From: an uncultured Gemmatimonadales bacterium
GTDB lineage: Bacteria > Gemmatimonadota > Gemmatimonadetes > Gemmatimonadales > Gemmatimonadaceae
Assembly (NCBI GenBank): GCA_963701965.1
Contig: OY969695.1
Coordinates: 2,624,001-2,688,000, forward strand
Length of the DNA stretch: 64,000 bases
Direction of reading: 5' to 3'
Every line of letters begins with the position of its first letter. Positions within the stretch are counted from its first letter, which is position 1. A program made the translations under genes and the position numbers. Positions 4,633 through 57,285 of this stretch are shown in pieces. The notes below the pieces were generated by a model. It made no database searches. It had not been told where the DNA came from and saw only the letters and a list, made by a program, of their open reading frames with translations.

Positions 4633-4698
4633 GCATTGAAGATGCCCGGGCGCCGCGCCGCGCCGGCATCGGCCGATCGGGGGGGATCGGGGGGGCCG

Positions 4699-4764
4699 GA
4701 CCCCGGCGCAGCCGGGATCGGTCCAACCGACCCGGGATCTCGCGACGCGGAGCGTCGCCGGATC
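4699..4764 (+). repeat. Dispersed GATC-bounded double-hairpin element, copy 1 (intergenic)
   Basis: Near-identical to 43419-43485 (reverse strand) and 52681-52747. Confidence 0.9.
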
Positions 4765-18303: not shown

Positions 18304-19741
18304 CTAGGGCCTGAGCGATGCGAGCTGCGCGCGCACGCGCTCCACGCGTGTGCGAAACGTCGCGTCCGTGGTCATCTCCTCGGTGACGCGCTCCAAGCTG
18401 TGAATCACCGTCGAGTGGTCGCGGCCCCCGAACGCGTTCCCGATCTCCACCAGCTGCACTTGGAGGAGCTCGCGGGCCAGAATGCATGGCCACCTGGCGG
18501 GGCGTGGTCAGCGCCTTGGTGCGGGTCTTGGACTTGAGCCCGTCGACCGTGACGCCCCACTCCTTCGCCACGCTGTGCTGGATCGCGTGCACCGTCAGGC
18601 CCCCGGCGGCATCGGGCGCGACGCTGCCGTCCGGCGCCAGCCGGATTTTGTCGCGGAGCGCGTCGCGCGCCAGGTCGACGCTGATCGCGCGGTGCTTGAG
18701 CGACGAGTAGGCGAGCAGCTTGATGATCGACCCTTCGAGCTCGCGCACACTGGAGCGCACGTGCTCGGCGATGAACCCGATCACGTCGTCCGGAATCGTG
18801 GTCTCCAGGTGATCGAGCTTGGCCTTGTGGCGCAGGATCGCGATGCGGTGCTCGAGATCGGGGGTCCCGATGTCGGCCACCATCCCCCACTGGAACCGGC
18901 TCACCAACCGCGCTTCGAGCCCGGGGATTTCGCTCGGGGGCCGGTCGGACGTCAGGATGATCTGGCGGCCGGCCTCGTACAGGGCGTTGAACGTATGGAA
19001 GAACTCTTCCTGCGTGCTCTCCTTCCCCTTGAGAAAATGCACGTCGTCCACGAGCAGCATGTCGGTCTCCCGATAGCGCCGGCGGAACTCGTGGTTGGTC
19101 CGCGTCTGGATGGCGGCCACCATCTCGTTCGTGAATTGCTCCGTGCCCACGAGCATGATCCGCGTCGACGGATGCCGCTGCAGGACGTCGTGGGCGACAG
19201 CCTGCATGAGATGGGTCTTGCCCAAGCCGGTGGCGCCGTAGACGAACAGCGGGTTGTAGAACTTGCCGGGCCCCTGGGCTACGGCCTGCGCCGCGGCAAA
19301 GGCCAGCTCGTTCGATTTCCCGGGCACGAAATGGTCGAACGTGTAGCGCGGCGTCAACGGCGCGTTGATCAGGGCCTGTCGCTTGGTCGCGGGCTCCTCG
19401 GGCGGCGGTGCCACGAACAGGTCCATCTGCGGCCGCGCCTTGCGCTCGTCGCTCACGCGAAACACGACATTCACCGGATGGCCCACGGCGACTGGCGCGA
19501 AGCTCGCCAGGAGATGCGCGTGCTTCGACTCGTTCCAATCCGCCGCGAACTGGTCGGGCGCGCTCACGACCAGCGATTGCGGGGCCGGCGTCGCGCCGTT
19601 CGTCGCCCCATCCTCGAGCCGGAGCGCTTCGGTGGGCTCGAGCCAGGTCCGGAACGTCTGCTCGGGCAGCGCTTGACGCGCCCGTTCGAGCAGACGGCTC
19701 CAGACTTCGGCGGCGGTGAGTGAGGCGGTCGTTGAAGACAT
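18304..19741 (-). CDS. dnaA: Replication initiator DnaA (+1 frameshift at ~18481, likely sequencing error)
   Basis: [32 protein letters not shown]; domain [12 protein letters not shown] continues in the shifted frame to TAG at 18304. Confidence 0.96.
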
Positions 19742-42022: not shown

Positions 42023-43499
42023 TCAGCCGGCGCGCTCCCGTCGCGCGGTGACGCGCAAATGTTCGCCGATCGGGTCGTCCGGCGGGGTGAGATACCCCCA
42101 CGCCAGCGATCCCTCTTGCCGATACGTCTTGCCGAGCTGGATGGCGATCTTGGCCTTGGCCAACTCTTTCCCCAGGTAGAACGCGTGCGTCGGCTCTTCG
42201 ACGCCCAGCTGCGCGAAGATCGCCTGGATGTCGGTGCCGCGGACGAAGCGCTCGCTGTTGAGCACCGTGATCGTATCCCGATCCGTGAAGATGCGGAAGT
42301 TCGCATCCGTGATGGACGCTTGCAGGGTCCGCAGCTCCGCCTCGGAATAGGCGAGGAGATCCGGGTCTTTGACGGTCACCAGCCGATCATCAATGTGCTT
42401 CGGCAGCGATTGCTTGGAGACCGCGTAGTGCATGAGACGGCGCGCGACGTCGAGCTCGCGGACGGCGCCCCGGGCCCAGGGAATGACTTCCGTGGTCAAC
42501 ACGCCGCGGACGCCGGTCTCCTGGGCGATGGCCATGAGGATCGCGTTGACGCCGGTGGTATCGGCCGCGGTGAGCTCGGTGAGATTGCCGATGCCCATGA
42601 ACAAGGGCGCGTCGGGAAACCGGCGATGGGCCTCGGCGAACCGTTCGATCGACGCCGTGAACCCGAACCCGATCGGTTCGATGACGGGGTCGATGAGATA
42701 GGGCACGCCCCACTGTTCGAGCGCCGCGATCGTCGGGTCGATGGTCGCGAGACCGGCGCCGAGGTCGGGAATGGCTACCACGCGGGCCCCCGATCCCGCG
42801 ATCTCGCGGGCGACATCGCGATTCGCGCCGTGGATGCTGAGCACGAGGGTAGCCCCGGCGCCGACCGCCGTCAGGATTTCGTCGCGCTCGAAGCTGTCGA
42901 TACTGAGGCGGAGTCCGAGACCGACCAGCTCGCGCACGAGGTCGGCGAGCTCGGGAAACGGGCGGCCGGGTGTCATCCCGAGATCGATGATGTCGGCGCC
43001 GCTGTCGCGGAAGTACTGCTGCCTGGCGCACCACCTCGGCCCGCGACAGCCGCGGCACGTTGTTGATCTCGGCGACGATTTCGATGTCGTAGGCGCCGTA
43101 CTCGCGCGCGACGTCCGCCCGGCCAAACCACGTAGGGATTTCGCGGAGGTCCTTTGGCCCTTTCACAACGGCGACGCCGACCTTGTCGGTGATGACGGCC
43201 GGATCGCCTTCGCAGAGGCCCGGGATCATCACCAGGTCGGTGCCCGCGGGCACTTCCAGAAACCGCGCGATCCACGGCGTGGTCATGAGGGCCGCGACGG
43301 TGATCTTGAGCGGCACGACCGAGTAGGCGAACCCGGGCGCCATCGCCGTGAGCGTCTCGCGCAGCGCGGGCTCGGCCAGCCGCCCGGTCACGAATGCGAC
43401 TGACCGGGCGTTGCTAACGATCCCGGCGACGCTTCGCGTCGCGAGATCCAGTGTCGGTTGGACCGATCCCGGCTGCGCCGGGATCCTAGCCGCGCTTAT
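42023..43499 (-). CDS. Dihydropteroate synthase-like methanopterin biosynthesis protein (Orf20-like); frameshift at ~43020, start uncertain
   Basis: FVTGRLAE, VAALMT, PGLC, GPKDL, GADIIDLG, GNLTELT, HAFYLGKEL. Confidence 0.88.
43419..43485 (-). repeat. Dispersed GATC-bounded double-hairpin element, copy 2
   Basis: GATCCCGGCG terminal inverted repeats; in frame with the Orf20-like N-terminus. Confidence 0.9.
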
Positions 43500-44649: not shown

Positions 44650-45564
44650 ATGCGACTCCTGGTCAGTGTGGCGGACGCGGCCGACGCGTACGCGGCAGTC
44701 GACGGCGGCGCCGACATCGTCGACGCCAAAGACCCGACGCGCGGCGCCCTCGGCCCCGTCTCGCCGGCGGCGCTTCGCGCCATCATCGGCGCCGTTGCCG
44801 GCCGGCGGCCAGTCAGTGCCGCGATCGGCGAGATCACGGACGGCATGCTCGGCGCACGCGCCTTCGGCGCGGCGCCGCACTGTAAGCAAGCCGGCATCGC
44901 ATCGCCGCCACTCGTCCAAGGCGACTTCGCGTTGTCCCCAGTCGTGCACGGCGATTTCGCATCGTCGCAATTCGTCCCGGGCGACATCGCGCTGCCGCCA
45001 TTCGCCCAAGGTGAATTCGCATCGCCGCCACTCGTCCGAGGCGACATCGCGCTGCCGCCATTCTCCCACGGCGACTTCGCATCGCTGCAATTCGTGAAAG
45101 TCGCCTTCGCGCCTGGGATGTCGGCGACGGCGGCCGCGAAGCGGGCCGCCGAGATGATCGACGTGGGGACCGTGCGCTGCGTGTTGGCCGCCTACGCCGA
45201 TGCCGGGCTGCATCGCGATGACGTCGTAGAGATCGCCGCGCAGATCGGCGCGTCGGGCGTATTGCTCGACACGTTCGATAAGACCGGTCCGGGTCTCTTC
45301 GACGTGGTCGACGACGACACGTTGGCGCGCTGGGTCCGGGGCGCGCAACGGGCGGGGTTGACCGTCGCGTTGGCGGGGCGTCTCTCGGCCGCTGAGCTGC
45401 CGCGGGTGGCGGCGCTCGGTGCGGACATTGTCGGCGTGCGCGGGGCCGCGTGTGTGGGCGGCCGCGAGGCCCAAGTCTCGCCGGCCGCTGTCCGCGCGCT
45501 CCGCGCTACGATCCAGCGAGAAACCGCTCCCATGCCGGATTGCCGCGCAGCGGCCAGTACGTGA
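44650..45564 (+). CDS. mfnB: (5-formylfuran-3-yl)methyl phosphate synthase, MfnB/Orf22-like, with an internal repeat insert
   Basis: GADIVDAKDPTRGALG, VSAAIG, LLDTFDK, LAG, GVRGAAC. Confidence 0.85.
   Translation: MRLLVSVADAADAYAAVDGGADIVDAKDPTRGALGPVSPAALRAIIGAVAGRRPVSAAIGEITDGMLGARAFGAAPHCKQAGIASPPLVQGDFALSPVVHGDFASSQFVPGDIALPPFAQGEFASPPLVRGDIALPPFSHGDFASLQFVKVAFAPGMSATAAAKRAAEMIDVGTVRCVLAAYADAGLHRDDVVEIAAQIGASGVLLDTFDKTGPGLFDVVDDDTLARWVRGAQRAGLTVALAGRLSAAELPRVAALGADIVGVRGAACVGGREAQVSPAAVRALRATIQRETAPMPDCRAAAST
44893..45099 (+). repeat. Coding 30-bp tandem repeat (six full copies plus one partial)
   Basis: GGCGAC/GGCGAT/GGTGAA recurs at 44920, 44950, 44980, 45010, 45040 and 45070. Confidence 0.92.
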
Positions 45565-48166
45565 TGTCGGTCCGCGCGGACCACAGCGAGAATCCCGTCT
45601 TGAGCGTCATCAGCCGGCGCAGGTGCGCGATGGCGGAATCGGCCATGCCAATGGTCCCGAACACGGCCGCAACAGTCTGCTCGAAGTTCGCCCGCTGCGG
45701 ATCGTCAGCGCTGAGCGAATCCGCGTAGCGCTCGAGCGAGATCACCTGTTGCATGGCCTTCGGGCGGTCGCCGCGAAATGAGTAGCCCCATCCAAGCAGC
45801 TGATAGCGGGCGAAGATGAGCGGGCCGGTCAAGCGCGGCGACAGCCCGATGCGCACGACCGAATCCCCGTACGCGCGCGCCGCCTGCTGATCGCCGAGCG
45901 CGAGCACCGCCAGTCGCTTCGCGATATAGAACGTGCTGGAATCCAGAAACTGCCCCGCGTGCGCGTCCTCGAGCGACATGTGCTGCAGTTTTTCCCAGCC
46001 CGTGCGGCCAAAGTTCGTGTACTGCGTCGCCAGCGTCACGGTCATCACCACGCCGCGCGCTTCGGCCGTATCCATGGTCCGGCGTCCCGCCGCCGTGTCT
46101 CCGCGCCCGTCGATCTCGGCGTTGATGCGCCAGCTGTACCCGATCGACGACGTCGGCGCCAACGCGATATACCGATCCGCGTACCGTTCCGTCTCGGCGT
46201 AGCGGTGATAGTTGTACGTCTGACCGATGACCCGCTGCAGGGTGACGAGTGCCCGCGGATCCAGCTTCACGGCCTTGGCCAGGTTCGCGAACCCCTCCGT
46301 CGTCTGGCCTTGGACGATCTGCGCGCTGCCGAGACGCGAGAGGAGATTCGCATCGTTGGGCCGCAACGCCTGGGCCCGCGTCAACTCCTCCATCGCTCGC
46401 GCCTTGTCCTTCAAGAAGAAGTCCAGGTAGAAGGCGCGGACCGCGTGTCCGTCGGCGAGACCCGGCTTGAGCGCAAACGCCGAATCCAGGGAGCGCTTCG
46501 CGGACGCGAGGCGACTCGTGTCGGAGATATCCAGAATGGCCCAACTGAATTGCGCATCGGCGAGCTTGGCGAACGCCAACGCGAACGATGGGTCGAGATG
46601 TGTGGCCTCCCCGAACGCGCCCATGGCCTGGCGAATGTTCTCGGGGGAGAGCTCGTTAATGGTCTGGTCGAACGCCTCTCCGCGCATGTACGCATCGTAC
46701 GCCCGCGGGTTGGCCGTCGGGCGATCCACGAGCGCCTTCTGCTCGTCGCCGTTGAGCGTGACGTTGAGCGCGTCGGCGACCTCGGTCGCCACCTTCGTCT
46801 GCACATCGAACACATCGGCGGGCGAGACCTGGTACGGTCCGCCCGCGGGCTTCGTGGTCAGATCGTTCGTGCTCACCAGCGATGGCGAGATCTGCACCAG
46901 CGGCGCGCCCTTCTCGTTCGACGCCCAGCGCACGGTGCCTTCGAGCACGTACTGGACCCCGAGCTCGCGGCCGATCTGCCGCACCGATTTCGTCGTGTTC
47001 CGGTACTGTCCGGCGCTCCGCCGATCGATGACGCCGAGGTTGTGCAGGCTCGCCAGGCGATTCGTGATGGCCTCGGTAAGCCCGTCCGCGAAATACGCGT
47101 CCGACGCCGGTCCCTGATTCTCGAACGGCAGGACCGCGAGCATGGTCTGCCCCTTGGGCGTATCGAACCGCTGGCGATGCAACAGGGTCCAGGCGCCCGC
47201 GGCCACCGCCAGAAACGCCGCCGCGACCGCGGCGACGCGAGGATGCGAGGGCCGCCGGCTCCCCCGGCCGGCGGGAACCGCCGCGTTGGTCGGCGTCCAC
47301 GTGCCGCTCGATGTGGGGATCGAGTCCAGCACCCGGATGATCTCGTCCGCCGATTGCGGGCGGTCGGCCGGCCGCTTCTCCAGGCACCGCATGACCACCG
47401 CGCCCAGCGCCTGCGGGATCGCCGGGCGGCGCCGGGTGACGGATTCCGGCGTCTCTATCGCATGCGCGGCCAACATCGCCTGGGCCGGTCGCCCGGCGAA
47501 CGGCGGATCGCCTGTCAACAGCTCGTACGACATCGCGCCGAACGCGTACAGGTCGGCCCGGTGGTCCGTCGCCGGATCGGCCGCGGCCTGCTCCGGCGCC
47601 ATGTACGCCGGGGTGCCGAGCGCGACGCCGAACTGCGTGAGTTGCCCCTGGCCGCTCATCGTCGCCGCGGCATTGAGCGCCTTCGCCACCCCGAAATCGG
47701 TGACCATTGCCGACCCGCCGGAGATCAGCACGTTGTCCGGCTTGATGTCGCGGTGGACCACGCCGTTGGCGTGCGCATAGCTCAGTGCCGACGCTACTTC
47801 GCGGAGCACCCGCACGGCCTCGCCGACGGGCAGTTCGCCGCCCTTGGCCAGCCGATTTCGCAGGGACTCGCCGTCGATGAACGGCATCGTGAAGTACGGG
47901 AGACCGCCCGACTCGCCCGCCGCGAGCAACGGCACGATGTGCGGATGCTGGAGCCGCGCCGCTACCTGGATCTCGCGGCGGAACCGTTCCACATTGAGGC
48001 CCTCGGCCAGCTCCGGGGACATCACCTTGATCACGACCGTGCGCGCCAGCACCGTCTCTTCGGCCACGAAGACGCGCGACATGCCCCCACCGCCGAGCTC
48101 TCGCTCGAGGCGATAGGCGGTTCCCAGGGTCGATTGGAGGCGGGCGCGGAGCGCGTCGTCGGTCAC
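45506..48166 (-). CDS. Membrane Ser/Thr protein kinase with TolB-like and TPR domains
   Basis: GGGGMS, HRDIKPDN, DFG, YMAPE; TM; AVLPFEN; TPR-like helices. Confidence 0.93.
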   Translation of the reverse strand: MTDDALRARLQSTLGTAYRLERELGGGGMSRVFVAEETVLARTVVIKVMSPELAEGLNVERFRREIQVAARLQHPHIVPLLAAGESGGLPYFTMPFIDGESLRNRLAKGGELPVGEAVRVLREVASALSYAHANGVVHRDIKPDNVLISGGSAMVTDFGVAKALNAAATMSGQGQLTQFGVALGTPAYMAPEQAAADPATDHRADLYAFGAMSYELLTGDPPFAGRPAQAMLAAHAIETPESVTRRRPAIPQALGAVVMRCLEKRPADRPQSADEIIRVLDSIPTSSGTWTPTNAAVPAGRGSRRPSHPRVAAVAAAFLAVAAGAWTLLHRQRFDTPKGQTMLAVLPFENQGPASDAYFADGLTEAITNRLASLHNLGVIDRRSAGQYRNTTKSVRQIGRELGVQYVLEGTVRWASNEKGAPLVQISPSLVSTNDLTTKPAGGPYQVSPADVFDVQTKVATEVADALNVTLNGDEQKALVDRPTANPRAYDAYMRGEAFDQTINELSPENIRQAMGAFGEATHLDPSFALAFAKLADAQFSWAILDISDTSRLASAKRSLDSAFALKPGLADGHAVRAFYLDFFLKDKARAMEELTRAQALRPNDANLLSRLGSAQIVQGQTTEGFANLAKAVKLDPRALVTLQRVIGQTYNYHRYAETERYADRYIALAPTSSIGYSWRINAEIDGRGDTAAGRRTMDTAEARGVVMTVTLATQYTNFGRTGWEKLQHMSLEDAHAGQFLDSSTFYIAKRLAVLALGDQQAARAYGDSVVRIGLSPRLTGPLIFARYQLLGWGYSFRGDRPKAMQQVISLERYADSLSADDPQRANFEQTVAAVFGTIGMADSAIAHLRRLMTLKTGFSLWSARTDITYWPLRGNPAWERFLAGS

Positions 48167-48726
48167 GGTACCATAAGATTATGCCAGACCTCGTCGGAGG
48201 CGAGCGCGATGTTGAGCTCGCCGGCGCGGCCGGCGGCCAACACGCGGGCGTCCAGGGCCTTGGGTCGGGCGCACGGGAAGTAGCGATCCGTCGCCCCAGG
48301 TACCGCCGCCGGCTTGATCAAAAGGAGCCGCCGGGCGCCGACGGCGCCGGCGATCCAGGCGGCGATGCTGTCGCTGGTGACATCCCAGGAGTGGGGCAGC
48401 GGATCGGCGGCCCGGAGCCACCGGTACGGGGCGAGGATGCCGAGCCCCCCGAATGGGGGTCGATCCGCCACGACCGCCTGTGGGAGGCGCGACGCCAGCA
48501 CCCAGGCGTATTGGTCCATGGCGAGAATCGCCGCCCAATGGGCGGCGTCCGCGCCCAGCCCCAGTGTCCTATCGACCGCACGCACGGCGTCGGCAAACGG
48601 ACCACCGCCCGGGACGATCAACGTTCGGCCATTGGCGGGAATGCTGGCGAGCTCGGCCACAACCGCATCAAAAAGCGGGCGATCCGCCAACAGAGCGCCG
48701 CCTACTTTCACGACAGTGTCGATCAC
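48163..48726 (-). CDS. Amino-acid-kinase-family protein, MfnE/Orf21-like
   Basis: VVKVGG, PGGGPFADAVR, AHWAAI, SWDVTSDSIA. Confidence 0.87.
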   Translation of the reverse strand: MIDTVVKVGGALLADRPLFDAVVAELASIPANGRTLIVPGGGPFADAVRAVDRTLGLGADAAHWAAILAMDQYAWVLASRLPQAVVADRPPFGGLGILAPYRWLRAADPLPHSWDVTSDSIAAWIAGAVGARRLLLIKPAAVPGATDRYFPCARPKALDARVLAAGRAGELNIALASDEVWHNLMVP

Positions 48727-49751
48727 GCCCGGGCCAGGAGGAGCGCGACCGCCGCGGCCGGCGCACATTCCGCGGCGGCGACGCCCAGCGTGTCGGAGAG
48801 CGCGATCGGCTGCAGCCCTGCTTGGCGGCAGGCCGCCTCGGCGATCGCCGCGCCGATGCCGGCAACGACGCCCGTGGACAGCGAGGGGTGGCGCTCCCGG
48901 ACCCGGGCGATCGCGCCCGCGGTGCGCGCCACCTGCGCGTCGCCGACGTACGTGGCGATGGCATTGATCGCCTTTTCGTCCAGCATTTCCCGGTCGGCGC
49001 ACACGACGCGGGCGATCCGCTCGGCCGCGAACGTACGCGCCGCGGGGCGGCCATCGGGCGTTGGCGCCGTGTACACCGTGGAACTGATCGTTCCGCGCCA
49101 CACGTGCACATCGCCCACGAGCGCGAAGCCCTCCGCGCTCACGCCGGCCCAACCAGCGCCCAGCGGCACCGCCCGCACGATCGCTTCGACCGGTGTCCGC
49201 ACCGCGCCCAGGTAGACCAGCTCACCCGATGCCAGACGTTCGGGATCGGTATGTCCCTCGGCGACGACCCGCCCGTCGACGATCGGGATGATGTCGGTCG
49301 TCGTCGAGCCGATATCGACCAGGACCGCATCCGGGACGTGCGCGGCGACCATCTGCGCCATGGCGACCCAGTTGGCGGCCGCCACGGCGAGCGGCTCGCG
49401 CCGGGCCGACTCGACCGTGAGCCAGCGGCCGTCGGTCGTGAATACCGCGATGCGGGCGCGCGGGAACGCGGCGGCGACGCCATTGAGCACAAACGCGACC
49501 CCTTCGCGCTTCGTCCGAAAGGCCTGTGACAGCTCGGCGGTCATGGTCACCGCGTGGGCCTCTTCGCCGATCCCCCCGATCTCGGCGGCGAGCGTGGTCA
49601 AGAGCCCGGGCAACGCGCCGAGGTCGCGCTGGATCTCGTAGGGCCGCGACCGCACGGCGACCACGCCGGGCCGCCCCGCGGCGTCCACGCCAACGCCGGC
49701 GACCTTGGTGTTGACGCCACCGATGTCCCAGCCGATTACCGTACAGGTCAT
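48723..49751 (-). CDS. Hydantoinase/oxoprolinase-like MfnF/Orf9 homolog
   Basis: GWDIGGVNTK, TMTAEL, AAANW, DIGSTTTDI, GELVYLG. Confidence 0.88.
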   Translation of the reverse strand: MTCTVIGWDIGGVNTKVAGVGVDAAGRPGVVAVRSRPYEIQRDLGALPGLLTTLAAEIGGIGEEAHAVTMTAELSQAFRTKREGVAFVLNGVAAAFPRARIAVFTTDGRWLTVESARREPLAVAAANWVAMAQMVAAHVPDAVLVDIGSTTTDIIPIVDGRVVAEGHTDPERLASGELVYLGAVRTPVEAIVRAVPLGAGWAGVSAEGFALVGDVHVWRGTISSTVYTAPTPDGRPAARTFAAERIARVVCADREMLDEKAINAIATYVGDAQVARTAGAIARVRERHPSLSTGVVAGIGAAIAEAACRQAGLQPIALSDTLGVAAAECAPAAAVALLLARA

Positions 49752-50436
49752 GCGGCTCATTGGGGTGATCGACTTGGCCGGCGGGCAAGCGGTCCACGCG
49801 CGCGGAGGGCAGCGGGCCGCCTACGCGCCCGTTCGATCCGCGCTTTTACCTTCCGGCGGCGGCGCCGATCCCGTTGCGCTGGCGCGCGCCTATCTCGATG
49901 TGCCGGTCGCGGAAATATACGTGGCCGATCTCGATGCGATCGCCGGCGACGAGCCGGCTTGGGATACGGTCGAGGCCCTGTCGCGGCTCGGCGTGCCGGT
50001 CTGGATCGATGCGGGCCAGCGCTCGGTCGAGGTCGCGGCGGGAGCGCCCACGGTGCGGGCGGTGATCGGGCTCGAGACGTTGCGCTCATGGCACGAGCTG
50101 GCAGCGCCAGGCGCTGCCTTCAGCCTCGATCTCCGACGTGGCCGCCCACTCGTGGGCGACGAGCCGCCCGCGGCCCTGGCGCGGCGCGCAGTGGCCGCCG
50201 GCGCTTCCGCCATCGTCCTGCTCGACCTCGCCCGCGTCGGGTCGTCAACCGGGCTCGACTGGGTAACGGTCCAGGAAGTCCGTACGTCAACGATGGGGGT
50301 GGAACTCATCGTCGGCGGAGGCGTACGGGACTCACAGGACGTGGATCGGCTGGCGGATCTGGGCTGCAACGGAGTCCTCGTCGCAACTGCCCTCCATGAG
50401 CGTCGCCTTGGGCACGGAGTTTTCCTGAGGACTTGA
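49750..50436 (+). CDS. HisA-related TIM-barrel protein (Orf17-like)
   Basis: IGVIDLAGGQAVHARGG, YVADLDAI, LDLARVG, GGGVR, ATALH. Confidence 0.87.
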   Translation: MRLIGVIDLAGGQAVHARGGQRAAYAPVRSALLPSGGGADPVALARAYLDVPVAEIYVADLDAIAGDEPAWDTVEALSRLGVPVWIDAGQRSVEVAAGAPTVRAVIGLETLRSWHELAAPGAAFSLDLRRGRPLVGDEPPAALARRAVAAGASAIVLLDLARVGSSTGLDWVTVQEVRTSTMGVELIVGGGVRDSQDVDRLADLGCNGVLVATALHERRLGHGVFLRT

Positions 50437-51786: not shown

Positions 51787-52124
51787 TGGCGACCGGCGAT
51801 GCGCGCGTGATCGTTCCCGCCGGTATCAAGGCCGGCGATGTCATCTACGTGCGGGCCATCATCGAACATCCCATGGACACGGGATTCTTTCGCACCCCCG
51901 ACGGCCAGCCGATCCCGGCGTATTTCATACAGGATGTCACCGTCCGATACGGCGAGGACGAGATCGCGCACTACGAGTGGACGTCGGGGGTGAGCCGGGA
52001 TCCATCGGTGACGTTCGCGTTGAAGGCGGTGCGTGAAGCGCCGATCGCCGTGACGTGGAAGGACAACAAGGGTGGTGTGTACCACCAGTCGGCCGACGTG
52101 AGATTCGCGCCGCAGGCGCAATGA
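51786..52124 (+). CDS. SoxZ-like protein
   Basis: IIEHPMDTG, IPAYFI, VSRDP, WKDNKG. Confidence 0.87.
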   Translation: MATGDARVIVPAGIKAGDVIYVRAIIEHPMDTGFFRTPDGQPIPAYFIQDVTVRYGEDEIAHYEWTSGVSRDPSVTFALKAVREAPIAVTWKDNKGGVYHQSADVRFAPQAQ

Positions 52125-53939
52125 TCGCGCGGGCGCTGCTCGGCGCCCTGGTTGCTCTCCCGCCGCTGTTGCCGTTACCCCGACCAACGGCGTATCCCAG
52201 CGTCAGATTGGCCGAAGGGGTGTACGCGGTGCCCGGCGACACGGGACGCGGCTCCGAGGGACGGGCCAACGCGGGCTTCGTCGTCACGGACAGCGGCGTG
52301 GTGGTCATCGACGCCGAGTCCAGTCCCTATCAAGCCAAGCGCCTGCTCGCCAGCATCCGGCGTGAGACGCCGGCGCCCGTGCGGTGGCTGATTCTCACGC
52401 ACCACCATCCCGACCATACGTTCGGCGCGATCGTGTTCAAGCGGATGGGCGCTCAGGTGATCGCGCATCCCGATCGACATTTCCTCGCCGCCGAGGAAGG
52501 CGACGATGCGCTGGTCGCCAACTGGGATGGCGTCGTCGGTGTCCAGCAACTGGTGGGGTTCGCGTTCGCCGACACGCCGGGTTTGGCGATCACGCACGAC
52601 ACCACGCTCACGCTCGGCCGTCGCCGCATCGAGATCCTGCATCCGCCCGACGCGCACACGGCGGGGGATCTCGCTGTCTTGATCCCGGCGCAGCCGGGAT
52701 CGGGCCAACCGACCTCGGATCTCGCGACGCGAAGCGTCGCCGGGATTCCCGACGTCCGCGTGCTCTTCGCCGGGGACATCGTTGTCGAGGATGGGGTGAG
52801 CATGGTGGTCGATGGCACGGCGTCGGGGACGCTGCGGGCGCTCGACCGGTTCGAGGCGTTGCATCCCGCCGTCGTCGTGCCGGGGCACGGGCGGATCGAG
52901 GCCGATCCGGCATCCCAGATCGCGCGCACGCGGACGTACCTCGACTCGGCGCGGACCGCGCTCAAGGCCGCGCTCGATCGCGGGATGCCGCTCAGCCGTG
53001 TGCTGGCGCGGATGCCGCCGCCGGATTCCGGACGCCCGGTGTCGCTCGCGTCGCGCCATCAGCGGAACGCGGTGCGCATCTACGCCGAGCTCGAGAAGGA
53101 ATTGATAGACCCGCCCCATTCAGGTCTGATCTCGACCGACTCATTAGCGAGTCTGATCAAGAACGGCCAGGCGACGATCGTCAATGTGCGTACGGACGTC
53201 TCGTTGTATCTGGAGTCGCACATTCCTGGCGCCGTATATCTGCACGCCGAGTCGCTGCGATCGTTCGACCACGGGGTGCCGAATCTGCTCCTCCCACCGG
53301 AGAGCTACGCGACGCTCTTCACGCGCATCGGCATCCGCCCCGACCGCCCCGTCATCGTGTACAGCGCGGGAGACACGCGCAACATCGACGCGACGTATCT
53401 GGCGTGGATCCTGGATGGTTTCGGGGTGCCGGTGTCGGTGCTCGACGGTGGTTTTCAGAAGTGGGATCTGGACCAGAAGCCCACGGGGCGCACGTACCCG
53501 GCACCGGTGCCAGGCACGTTTCCCGTGCGGGCGTTTGAGCCGGCCCGGGCCACGCTCGATGATGTGAAGCACGTCGTCGAGGCGCATCCCGCGGACGCGG
53601 TGCTCGTCGACGCGCGGTCGCCAGAGCAATATGCCGGGCAAGCGGGCGCCCAGAATGCGGCGCGGACACATTCCGGGTGCGGTCAATCACCCGTGGACGA
53701 CCGATCTGACGACGGGGTTGTCGCACGTCTTCAAGGATCGCGATGCCATCCGCACCAGCTATGTGACGCAGGGTATCACGTCGGACAAAGCCATCATCGC
53801 GTATTGCAACGGCGGACTCGAGTCCAGCCACATCTACTTCGTGCTGCATATGGTGCTCGGCTATCCGCGCGTCCGGGTGTACGACGGTTCGTACACCGAG
53901 TGGGCGGCGCACACCGAGCTGCCGGTGGTGGGCCCTTAG
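52121..53939 (+). CDS. Exported MBL-fold (SoxH-like) plus tandem rhodanese fusion (frameshift at ~53654)
   Basis: NAGFVV, THHHPDH, AHT.GD, FAGD, PGHG; HIPGA twice, LDGG, YCNGGLES, YDGSYTEW. Confidence 0.85.
52681..52747 (+). repeat. Dispersed GATC-bounded double-hairpin element, copy 3, in frame inside a CDS
   Basis: Encodes IPAQPGSGQPTSDLATRSVAGI. Confidence 0.9.
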
Positions 53940-55394: not shown

Positions 55395-55683
55395 GGGCAA
55401 TGCCCAGATCTTGCTACGGCCCACTGGGCGTAGCAAGATCCTGGTCGGTTGAACAGATCTGGGCTTTGCCCAGATCTTGCTACGGCCCACTGGCGTAGCA
55501 AGATCCTGGTCGGTTGAACTGATCTGGGCTTTGCCCAGATCTTGCTACGGCCCACTGGCGTAGCAAGATCCTAGTCGGTTGAACTGATCTGGGCTTTGCC
55601 CAGATCTTGCTACGGCCCACTGGCGTAGCAAGATCCTGGTCGGTTGAACTGATCTGGGCTTTGCCCAGATCTACCTACGGCCC
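55395..55683. repeat. Tandem array of 65-bp palindromic units (REP/BIME-like), four full copies plus a partial one
   Basis: Units start at 55402, 55468, 55533, 55598 and 55663; GTAG next to the GATCTGGGC-AAA-GCCCAGATC hairpin; between convergent genes. Confidence 0.93.
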
Positions 55684-55856
55684 GATAGTTGCAACCTATG
55701 GTCGCGGTATTAAATGAGGGCACCCCCGATGACCATCACTCGCTCGACCGATCGCCCGTCAGCGCCAAAGAACCCCCGTCCCGCAAGCCCGCCTCCAAAT
55801 GACGAGCCCCGGGTGATCGTTCGTGGACGCGTGTCCCATGTCGAACACGAAATCGA

Positions 55857-56405
55857 TCAGCCGGAGCCGATGCCCGTGCGCAAGTCCGGGGACCGCCCCA
55901 CGGCCTCGCGGTAGACGGCCGACTGGCCGAAGTTCTCCTCTACCTCGATCTCGATCACCCCAAGTCGACCCGCCGCGGAGCCGAGCTCCGTTTTGACTCG
56001 CCCGGCCAAGTACTGGGCCAACATCTCGACGGTGGTGTTCGGGATCGGGAGGAGAACGCAGTCTTCGCGGGGAAACACGTAACGGGGGCGGTGCTCGTAG
56101 GCCACCGTTATCGTTTCCCCCTGCTCGCCGATCACGAGCTTCGGGTTCTCCAAGGGCAGGAGCACCCAATGGTCGATCTCATCGCACAGCCGCTTCATCA
56201 GCCGCTTGAGGTCGACAAAGTTGAACACATACCAACTTTCGGGATCGAGTGGCCCCTCCAGCGCGACGGCGACACGGTAGTTGTGGCCGTGCAGGTTCTC
56301 GCAGCGGTGTCCGGCGAACGTGATGAAGTGCGCGGACGAGAACACGAGATAGTCTTTCGTGACCTGCACCCGGAAGAGCTTTTCGGCGTGATCAGTGGTC
56401 GGCAT
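55857..56405 (-). CDS. 6-pyruvoyl-tetrahydropterin synthase/QueD-family protein
   Basis: FSSAHF, CENLHGHNY, NTTVE. Confidence 0.9.
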   Translation of the reverse strand: MPTTDHAEKLFRVQVTKDYLVFSSAHFITFAGHRCENLHGHNYRVAVALEGPLDPESWYVFNFVDLKRLMKRLCDEIDHWVLLPLENPKLVIGEQGETITVAYEHRPRYVFPREDCVLLPIPNTTVEMLAQYLAGRVKTELGSAAGRLGVIEIEVEENFGQSAVYREAVGRSPDLRTGIGSG

Positions 56406-57285
56406 GCCAGAGTCCCGAGAGAAGACCAACAAAGAGCGAAGCCGCGGTGAGATCCGCGGTCGTGCCGGGATTCAACCGGCGCTCGCGCAGCGTGTGGTCA
56501 AATGTGGAAAGCGTCACGCGCCCGGCGAGCACGGCCGCCGCGCCGCGGCTGACAGCCGCGGCCGTGGGGGCGCCATGGCGACGGGCAATATGTGTATCGG
56601 GCGCGGCAGCGAGAAGGTGTAGGTAGGTGTCCACCGTCGCGGGCTCCCAACCCGCGCCCGTCGCCAGCGCCGCTCGCAACGTCGGAAACCCGAGCTCGAA
56701 CGTCGTCTCGAAATCCGTCGCGTACTCGCGGGCGACGCCATCCCGCTCGGCAGCCAGGCGCATCGTCTCGCGCAAGGCGATCCGAGGCTCGGCCGCAACG
56801 TCCTCGGCGCTGACGGCGCCGAGCCCGCCCGGTCGCGCGAGCCGGATCGCCGCATAGACCTCGCGCGCGTCCTCCACTGTCGTCGCCGCTAACATCTCGC
56901 CCAACGCTTCCCGAAGCCTCTTCGGGGCGCGAGATCCCTTGTCGATAACAGGGGTCGCGGCTTCGCCAGGATGCATGCGCTCGGTTTCACGGGCCCCGGC
57001 CTGGGCCGCGCGCGCAGCGCGCGCCAGCGGGACGATGAGCAGGACGATGCCGAGGTTGGTGTTCGAGCGCGTCCAGCGCGCTGTTGCCTGTACGGCCGCG
57101 TGTATGGTGGCGCCGAGCGGGCGGTCACCAGCGAGCGCGGGGCCGAGCGCGGCAGCGCTCGCCAAAAAGTCCTCGTAGCGCGCATCATGAAAATGTCGAT
57201 CGGGCGACACGTTGCCGGGTTTGGGCGCGCTCGCTTCCAGGAGGCAGGCGAGCTGGGCGGCCGCGACAATGAAGTCATCCGTCAT
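56392..57285 (-). CDS. CitG-like triphosphoribosyl-dephospho-CoA synthase family protein (Orf7-like)
   Basis: LEASAPKPGNV, NTNLG, DTHIAR, NPGTTAD. Confidence 0.9.
   Translation of the reverse strand: MTDDFIVAAAQLACLLEASAPKPGNVSPDRHFHDARYEDFLASAAALGPALAGDRPLGATIHAAVQATARWTRSNTNLGIVLLIVPLARAARAAQAGARETERMHPGEAATPVIDKGSRAPKRLREALGEMLAATTVEDAREVYAAIRLARPGGLGAVSAEDVAAEPRIALRETMRLAAERDGVAREYATDFETTFELGFPTLRAALATGAGWEPATVDTYLHLLAAAPDTHIARRHGAPTAAAVSRGAAAVLAGRVTLSTFDHTLRERRLNPGTTADLTAASLFVGLLSGLWHADH

Follow-up and report, generated by a model that had tools for sequence, protein, structure and literature searches.

We found that an MBL-rhodanese gene of an uncultured Gemmatimonadales bacterium carries a 63-base repeat. 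The insertion is real, lies in coding sequence and belongs to a new repeat family that is specific to the lineage. The gene lies in the 64,000-nucleotide stretch of DNA that we analysed (the window). The repeat sits in frame and has duplicated nothing at its target. It is probably a non-autonomous, single-stranded element that chooses its site by pairing a 4–6-base arm with the 3′ flank, and a separate enzyme would do the cutting and joining. The features of the window, with their strands, are as follows.

52121..53939, plus strand: host gene, an MBL-fold hydrolase fused to two rhodanese domains, downstream of soxY/soxZ-like genes
52680..52742, plus strand: mobile unit of 63 bases with corrected ends, the 5′ end one base before hairpin A and the 3′ end two bases past the bulge
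52681..52701, plus strand: hairpin A, a 9-bp stem with a GNA three-base loop, from covariation across the repeat family
52702..52712, plus strand: conserved single-stranded core, consensus HGTYCAACCGA, with one change in the 52680 copy
52713..52716, plus strand: free 4-base spacer, unrelated to the flank (34/92 paired versus 34.3 expected)
52717..52722, plus strand: six-base arm complementary to the host target, the putative guide, from arm-flank pairing counts
52723..52742, plus strand: upper part of hairpin B, with a 6-bp stem, a GAA loop, one bulged C and two closing bases
52743..52748, plus strand: host target sequence pairing with the arm (family target RGATYY)
4698..4764, plus strand: further copy, just beyond the stop codon of a minus-strand gene
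43420..43486, minus strand: further copy at a gene 5′ end, possibly coding
55395..55688, minus strand: intergenic array of four 65-base variant units with a partial hairpin A at the end
56909..56972, minus strand: degenerate older copy inside a CitG-family gene, within a 31-residue extra segment

The CitG-family gene (56395–57285) has one stretch of 62 residues versus 31 in its orthologue L237, and the degenerate copy is perhaps an old domesticated insert. Genes resembling accessory genes of the methanopterin/methanofuran pathway flank the soxYZ-MBL-rhodanese operon (48163–50436 and 55857–57285); they are probably HisA-like, hydantoinase-like, CitG and PTPS genes. Five diverged 30-base direct repeats lie at 44868–45107.

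The preliminary description had proposed a repeat element, in frame within an enzyme gene, that adds 21 residues. The detection of 89 HMM units and of empty orthologous sites confirmed this. In the reading frame of its host gene, which starts at 52121, the insert gives the MBL-fold/rhodanese protein a net gain of 63 bases, or 21 residues. The spacing between the His and Asp metal-ligand motifs is 33 residues, versus 12 in 107 of 120 homologues matched by one search pattern; it is equally short in 12 further homologues matched by a second pattern, and one of the 120 was unmatched. The extra residues are missing in 119 of the 120 homologues and in all five same-genus orthologues, each of which aligned as two abutting tblastn pieces across the insertion site. 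Orthologues free of the repeat thus have empty sites and no loop of comparable length. A short-read contig from a 2024 soil run (depth 3, possibly the source sample) spans 52536–52720 with one difference, which rules out a long-read artefact at the left junction.

In an alignment-based structure model the fold was confident (pTM 0.88), and the insert formed a coil of low confidence where the chain turns from one strand to the next, with pLDDT below 50 at model residues 175–184. The closest solved structure to the host protein is 8d2z, an uncharacterised MBL-superfamily protein. The insert is predicted to be a loose surface loop that leaves the fold intact. Most likely, the protein simply tolerates the extra peptide as a passenger within a surface turn. 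The insert could also be real while its host is a decaying pseudogene, so that tolerance is only apparent. The assembly does hold a single-base frameshift in the soxY-like gene (~51690) and one in the second rhodanese domain of the host gene (near 53655). However, the metal-ligand motifs are intact, the protein is 69–76% identical to its genus orthologues, similar frameshifts split genes in another long-read relative, and pyruvate kinase, HisH and other single-copy hosts of the repeat have open frames. Both frameshifts are probably long-read errors, and we consider a decaying host distinctly improbable.

The ends of the insert were fixed by comparing 13 possible 63-base excision registers, of which only 52680–52742 restores the Trp found at this site in 117/120 homologues (the other three have Ser, none has Leu). 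The earlier proposal that removing 63 bp restores a normal MBL segment was therefore right in length and wrong in boundary. In AlkA, the corrected register leaves Arg and the alternative leaves Met; among the 111 matched AlkA homologues, the site is Lys in 87, Arg in 11, Ala in 8, Met in 3 (one of them the query) and Thr in 2. Genus AlkA proteins are too distant to serve as orthologues, and other AlkA homologues were compared instead. In four informative arrays (genome positions 2274911, 2569706, 2607086 and 4078030), the base before internal units is that of the left copy, not that of the right host flank. The array at genome position 3407072 and the relatives' arrays L082 and L145 do not follow this one-base rule exactly. 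Among 23 copies, the base taken as the 5′ end of the element is G in 13, A in 8 and T in 2.

These results bear on the duplicated GATC/IP target that the preliminary description had read at the site. A classical MITE- or RPE-like element that inserts at GATC and duplicates three or four bases is suggested by GAT, which most 63-base copies have at each end and which is shared in arrays. But its register leaves Leu in place of the nearly invariant Trp and Met in place of Lys/Arg, the array junctions carry the left copy's base, terminal inverted repeats are absent, and GAT is missing to the right of several copies, among them the 60-base variant and the copy in a TMEM260-like gene. Because Trp restoration, AlkA and the tandem-array junctions share one register, the sequences argue for insertion without target duplication, and the GAT at both ends only resembles one. 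Insertion with GATC duplication is largely refuted, and we regard it as very unlikely.

In each unit, a conserved core separates hairpin A, which has the GNA loop, from hairpin B, in which one base is bulged; a three-hairpin form occurs in relatives too. GNA three-base loops are a known trait of stable DNA hairpins. Both hairpins covary around the fixed core, hairpin A strongly so (90% of cells paired, 50 double changes, 0/500 shuffles), although kinship of the sequences inflates these values. Rfam covariance models run on nine loci gave no match in the repeat and one chance-level hit away from it.

BLAST detected at least 45 copies in the genome, with sharp limits at 52681 and 52746, and an iterated HMM detected 89 units, spread over 55 loci of this Gemmatimonadota genome, of which 32 lie within 0.8 Mb of dnaA versus 17 expected. 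In the window, dnaA is at 18875–19357 and the GC-skew minimum about 50 kb further on; the replication origin is probably in or near the window. The family occurs in all six genomes of the genus, one of soil bacteria. A strict pattern recovered it in the other genus genomes (5/5) and, among 95 further relatives, matched a single time in each of two, apparently by chance; a covariance model found 8–14 copies in four of the other genus genomes. Beyond the genus this model gave weak hits only, in 9 of 148 other family genomes and one among 150 phylum genomes. The other genera searched yielded no strong match, and a loose pattern run across 301 family genomes returned mostly noise (genomes marked unpublished enter the strict- and loose-pattern tallies as negatives only). 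Viral contigs contained no match and plasmids only chance hits. In the openly searchable literature, we found nothing on this repeat or on REPs of Gemmatimonadota. The sister-genus genome G023 (L159, L169) has a look-alike repeat, with a hairpin-core-hairpin plan, the core GTCGAARCAC and alternating inverted arrays like BIMEs. Several genus members (L044, L082, L091, L094) have a copy between infB and rbfA that overlaps both the stop of infB and the start of rbfA; one has it doubled.

Copies of the element are complementary to the host DNA on their right. In the 63-base subfamily, the arm and the six host bases right of the insert form 100 Watson-Crick and 13 G-T pairs, no A-C and 7 other combinations (n = 120, from 20 of 23 loci, three having been dropped as out of register), and these young copies show no pairing beyond the six bases. 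Older AG-type copies, scorable at 21 of 32 loci, have 70/84 Watson-Crick pairs at flank positions 3–6 versus 30.8 ± 4.2 expected, a match reached by 0/5000 permutations, with 19 different arms in the 21 loci and no clear excess of pairing at positions 7–9. The three-hairpin variant has 83/95 pairs versus 61.7 ± 3.1 expected (19 loci) and none beyond position 5, and the arm of the 60-base variant pairs with a wholly different target. The left flank has no consensus; the paired target lies on the 3′ side.

We compared the paired flank of eight relatives' loci with the empty site in this genome. L066, L079, L109, L111 and L113 matched at 8, 8, 7, 7 and 6 of 8 bases and L150 at 5/8, and L153 and L082 had no automatic projection. 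By this comparison, the paired flank is host DNA at the relatives' loci that could be checked. Rule-based removal of the unit restored the orthologue length without a gap in four coding cases, L054, L062, L070 and L132; in L148 it removes 76 bases, in an open frame.

Arm-flank complementarity is thus established, and pairing is its likely cause through target choice. Alternatively, the site might be chosen otherwise. Template switching (quasi-palindrome correction) could rewrite the arm to match its flank, during or after insertion, or the unit could be copied in through microhomology between the new site and the flank of a donor; no dedicated enzyme would be needed. That imperfect palindromes are corrected by template switching is well established. 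It would suit old copies that almost each have their own arm, the many compensatory changes in hairpin A, the few stems that reach 8–16 bp, the failure of our searches to find a mobilising enzyme, and occasional longer flanking duplications, such as those of 12–25 bases at L142 and L178. However, pairing ends at a fixed 5–6-base window in both old classes, and the same few arms recur at independent sites in the three-hairpin class. Moreover, young copies pair about as well as old ones and retain their 13 wobbles, all of the top-strand type, and 7 mismatches uncorrected. We therefore hold arm rewriting to be somewhat unlikely and favour target choice by the arm.

Two further copies concern a UvrC-like GIY-YIG gene next to mutM (L178 1790–1900 and L185). 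In G003 a variant copy sits where the two genes meet, and the final codons of mutM are repeated, in diverged form, on its flanks; in this genome, a four-unit array lies about 250 bases behind the same GIY-YIG gene. This mutM-linked gene was considered as a mobiliser and rejected: a copy is nearby in 2/6 genomes, but the gene also occurs without a copy and outside the genus.

If the arm does select the target, the element would most likely move as follows. The top strand, which bears the GNA loops, would fold as single-stranded DNA and be excised as a circle. Hairpin A would hide the element's own 5′ end and leave the arm free to pair with a single-stranded target, splinting that target beside the element's 3′ end. 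Strand transfer would then insert the unit without duplication, the enzyme supplying cutting and joining, and tandem arrays would reflect repeated or concatemeric insertion.

Searches for such an enzyme were negative. Y1 transposases (PF01797) were found in none of the six genus genomes, five of which are fragmented. Extending the PF01797 search to 60 relatives gave no mobiliser; 27 Y1 proteins of these relatives had no match in this genome, and no repeat lay beside any of the 27 genes. No transposase was recognised by Pfam among 77 ORFs neighbouring copies, an HUH-motif scan of predicted proteins gave only two unrelated hits, and a search for Y2 proteins of the IS91 kind (PF04986) gave no matches, as did its control. 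Five IS110 loci contained no copy of the repeat, and no tyrosine recombinase was adjacent to a copy. Among near-identical strains in two soil read runs (coverage well under 2), we saw neither an empty allele nor a circle junction. Replication-strand bias was absent (31/55, p = 0.42), in an assembly of irregular GC skew.

Judged by open frames and Pfam, 21 of the 55 loci lie in frame within genes, two of them uncertain (a PaaD start, and ImuB with a frameshift 15 bases on). Hosts include pyruvate kinase, AlkA, Ogt, HisH, Lhr and an ABC ATPase with 7 units, and the insertions use both orientations and several frames. Seven were verified against insert-free relatives: MBL-rhodanese, pyruvate kinase (80 residues versus 59 in all five relatives compared), AlkA, an unnamed gene (20 extra residues), the ABC ATPase, HisH and the TMEM260-like gene. 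Relatives too carry in-frame copies. In the ABC ATPase (L032 2086–2529), the seven units together with a 12-base remnant add about 151 in-frame residues to the first strands of an ABC ATPase domain; tolerance of such an insert would be surprising.

Of the 25 loci of the GGATC-arm subfamily, 18 lie in genes, versus 3 of the 30 other loci (p = 3e-6), and 84% of the subfamily's target sites are coding; this fits filtering by length and stop codons. Array periods are divisible by three in 6/6 coding arrays versus 2/6 non-coding ones. Members of the subfamily that spread in this genome measure 63 bases and mostly lack stops, and their gene insertions therefore survive; variants that differ in length or contain TAG persist chiefly at stop codons. 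The view of a mobile repeat tolerated by proteins is supported by the empty sites, the roughly 21 in-frame loci, the predicted surface turn and the single-copy housekeeping hosts, and the associated idea of new peptide loops is shown at the DNA level only.

Coding insertion as such is already known from Rickettsia RPEs and intragenic REPs; what is new here is arm-flank complementarity without duplication. In the available text of PMC3733652, RPEs and intragenic GTAG/CGTC REPs are in-frame palindromic repeats in ORFs, with 20–30 residues per insert and larger clusters, whose ends supply TAG stops and whose hosts often act in DNA repair. The 63-base repeat likewise lies in frame in ORFs, forms clusters and has TAG-supplying ends, and its repair hosts are AlkA, Ogt, ImuB, Lhr and an SNF2-type helicase. 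Unlike the GTAG/CGTC REPs, it has no GTAG or CGTC tag at the hairpin foot, and its flanks and first bases vary freely; unlike RPEs and REPs generally, it is a fixed hairpin-core-hairpin unit in head-to-tail arrays, with no inverted REP dimers. The parallel to RPEs drawn earlier hence stands for coding insertion and falls for membership of the RPE/CGTC family by sequence. The same text describes no RPE or REP whose inner arm is complementary to the host flank, and gives the CGTC class as lacking a dedicated transposase. How RPE- and CGTC-type repeats enter genes has yet to be explained, since no transposase is known for either.

IS608 (PMC5934647) and some RAYTs (PMC8266576, PMC6006769) are described as choosing their targets with a guide and duplicating nothing. 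Like IS200/IS605 elements and IS608, the repeat has imperfect hairpins on one strand, a bulged base and no target duplication. By analogy, its putative guide arm would match the short, changeable DNA-DNA pairing guide of IS608, which is four bases long, lies 5′ of the hairpin foot and has its target 5′ of the insertion (PMC5934647, PMC6006769). Here, in contrast, the arm is 4–6 bases and pairs as a normal antiparallel stem with the bases 3′ of the insertion; it varies naturally between copies, no TnpA was found, and orientation is not biased to the lagging-strand template.

Like REP/RAYT systems (REPtron, BIME, REPIN; PMC8266576, PMC3116915), these are genus-limited hairpin repeats at gene ends and in arrays; some such systems cut at CT, and the older copies here break at CT^AG. 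Unlike them, the family has no conserved GTAG foot and no RAYT gene flanked by the repeat, and the class 3 RAYT repeats given for Solibacter in PMC6006769 show no resemblance to it. It shares with MITEs (PMC2229807, PMC10969869) that it is small, non-coding, non-autonomous and sometimes fused in frame, and differs in having neither terminal inverted repeats nor target duplication.

Tentatively, the family might represent a new class of DNA-guided mini-transposon of 60–80 bases. Its arm would select a 4–6-base target 3′ of the cut and retarget by mutation, insertion would be seamless and made by an enzyme outside Y1/RAYT, and the 63-base form would seed peptide loops across the proteome. The family supplies exact boundaries, empty sites, a testable targeting rule and natural variants of the putative guide, each of which predicts its target. 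Should that rule prove causal, the enzyme would be a programmable, scarless single-strand inserter. A length divisible by three and the loss of TAG turn an intergenic repeat into a coloniser of proteins, including pyruvate kinase and repair enzymes.
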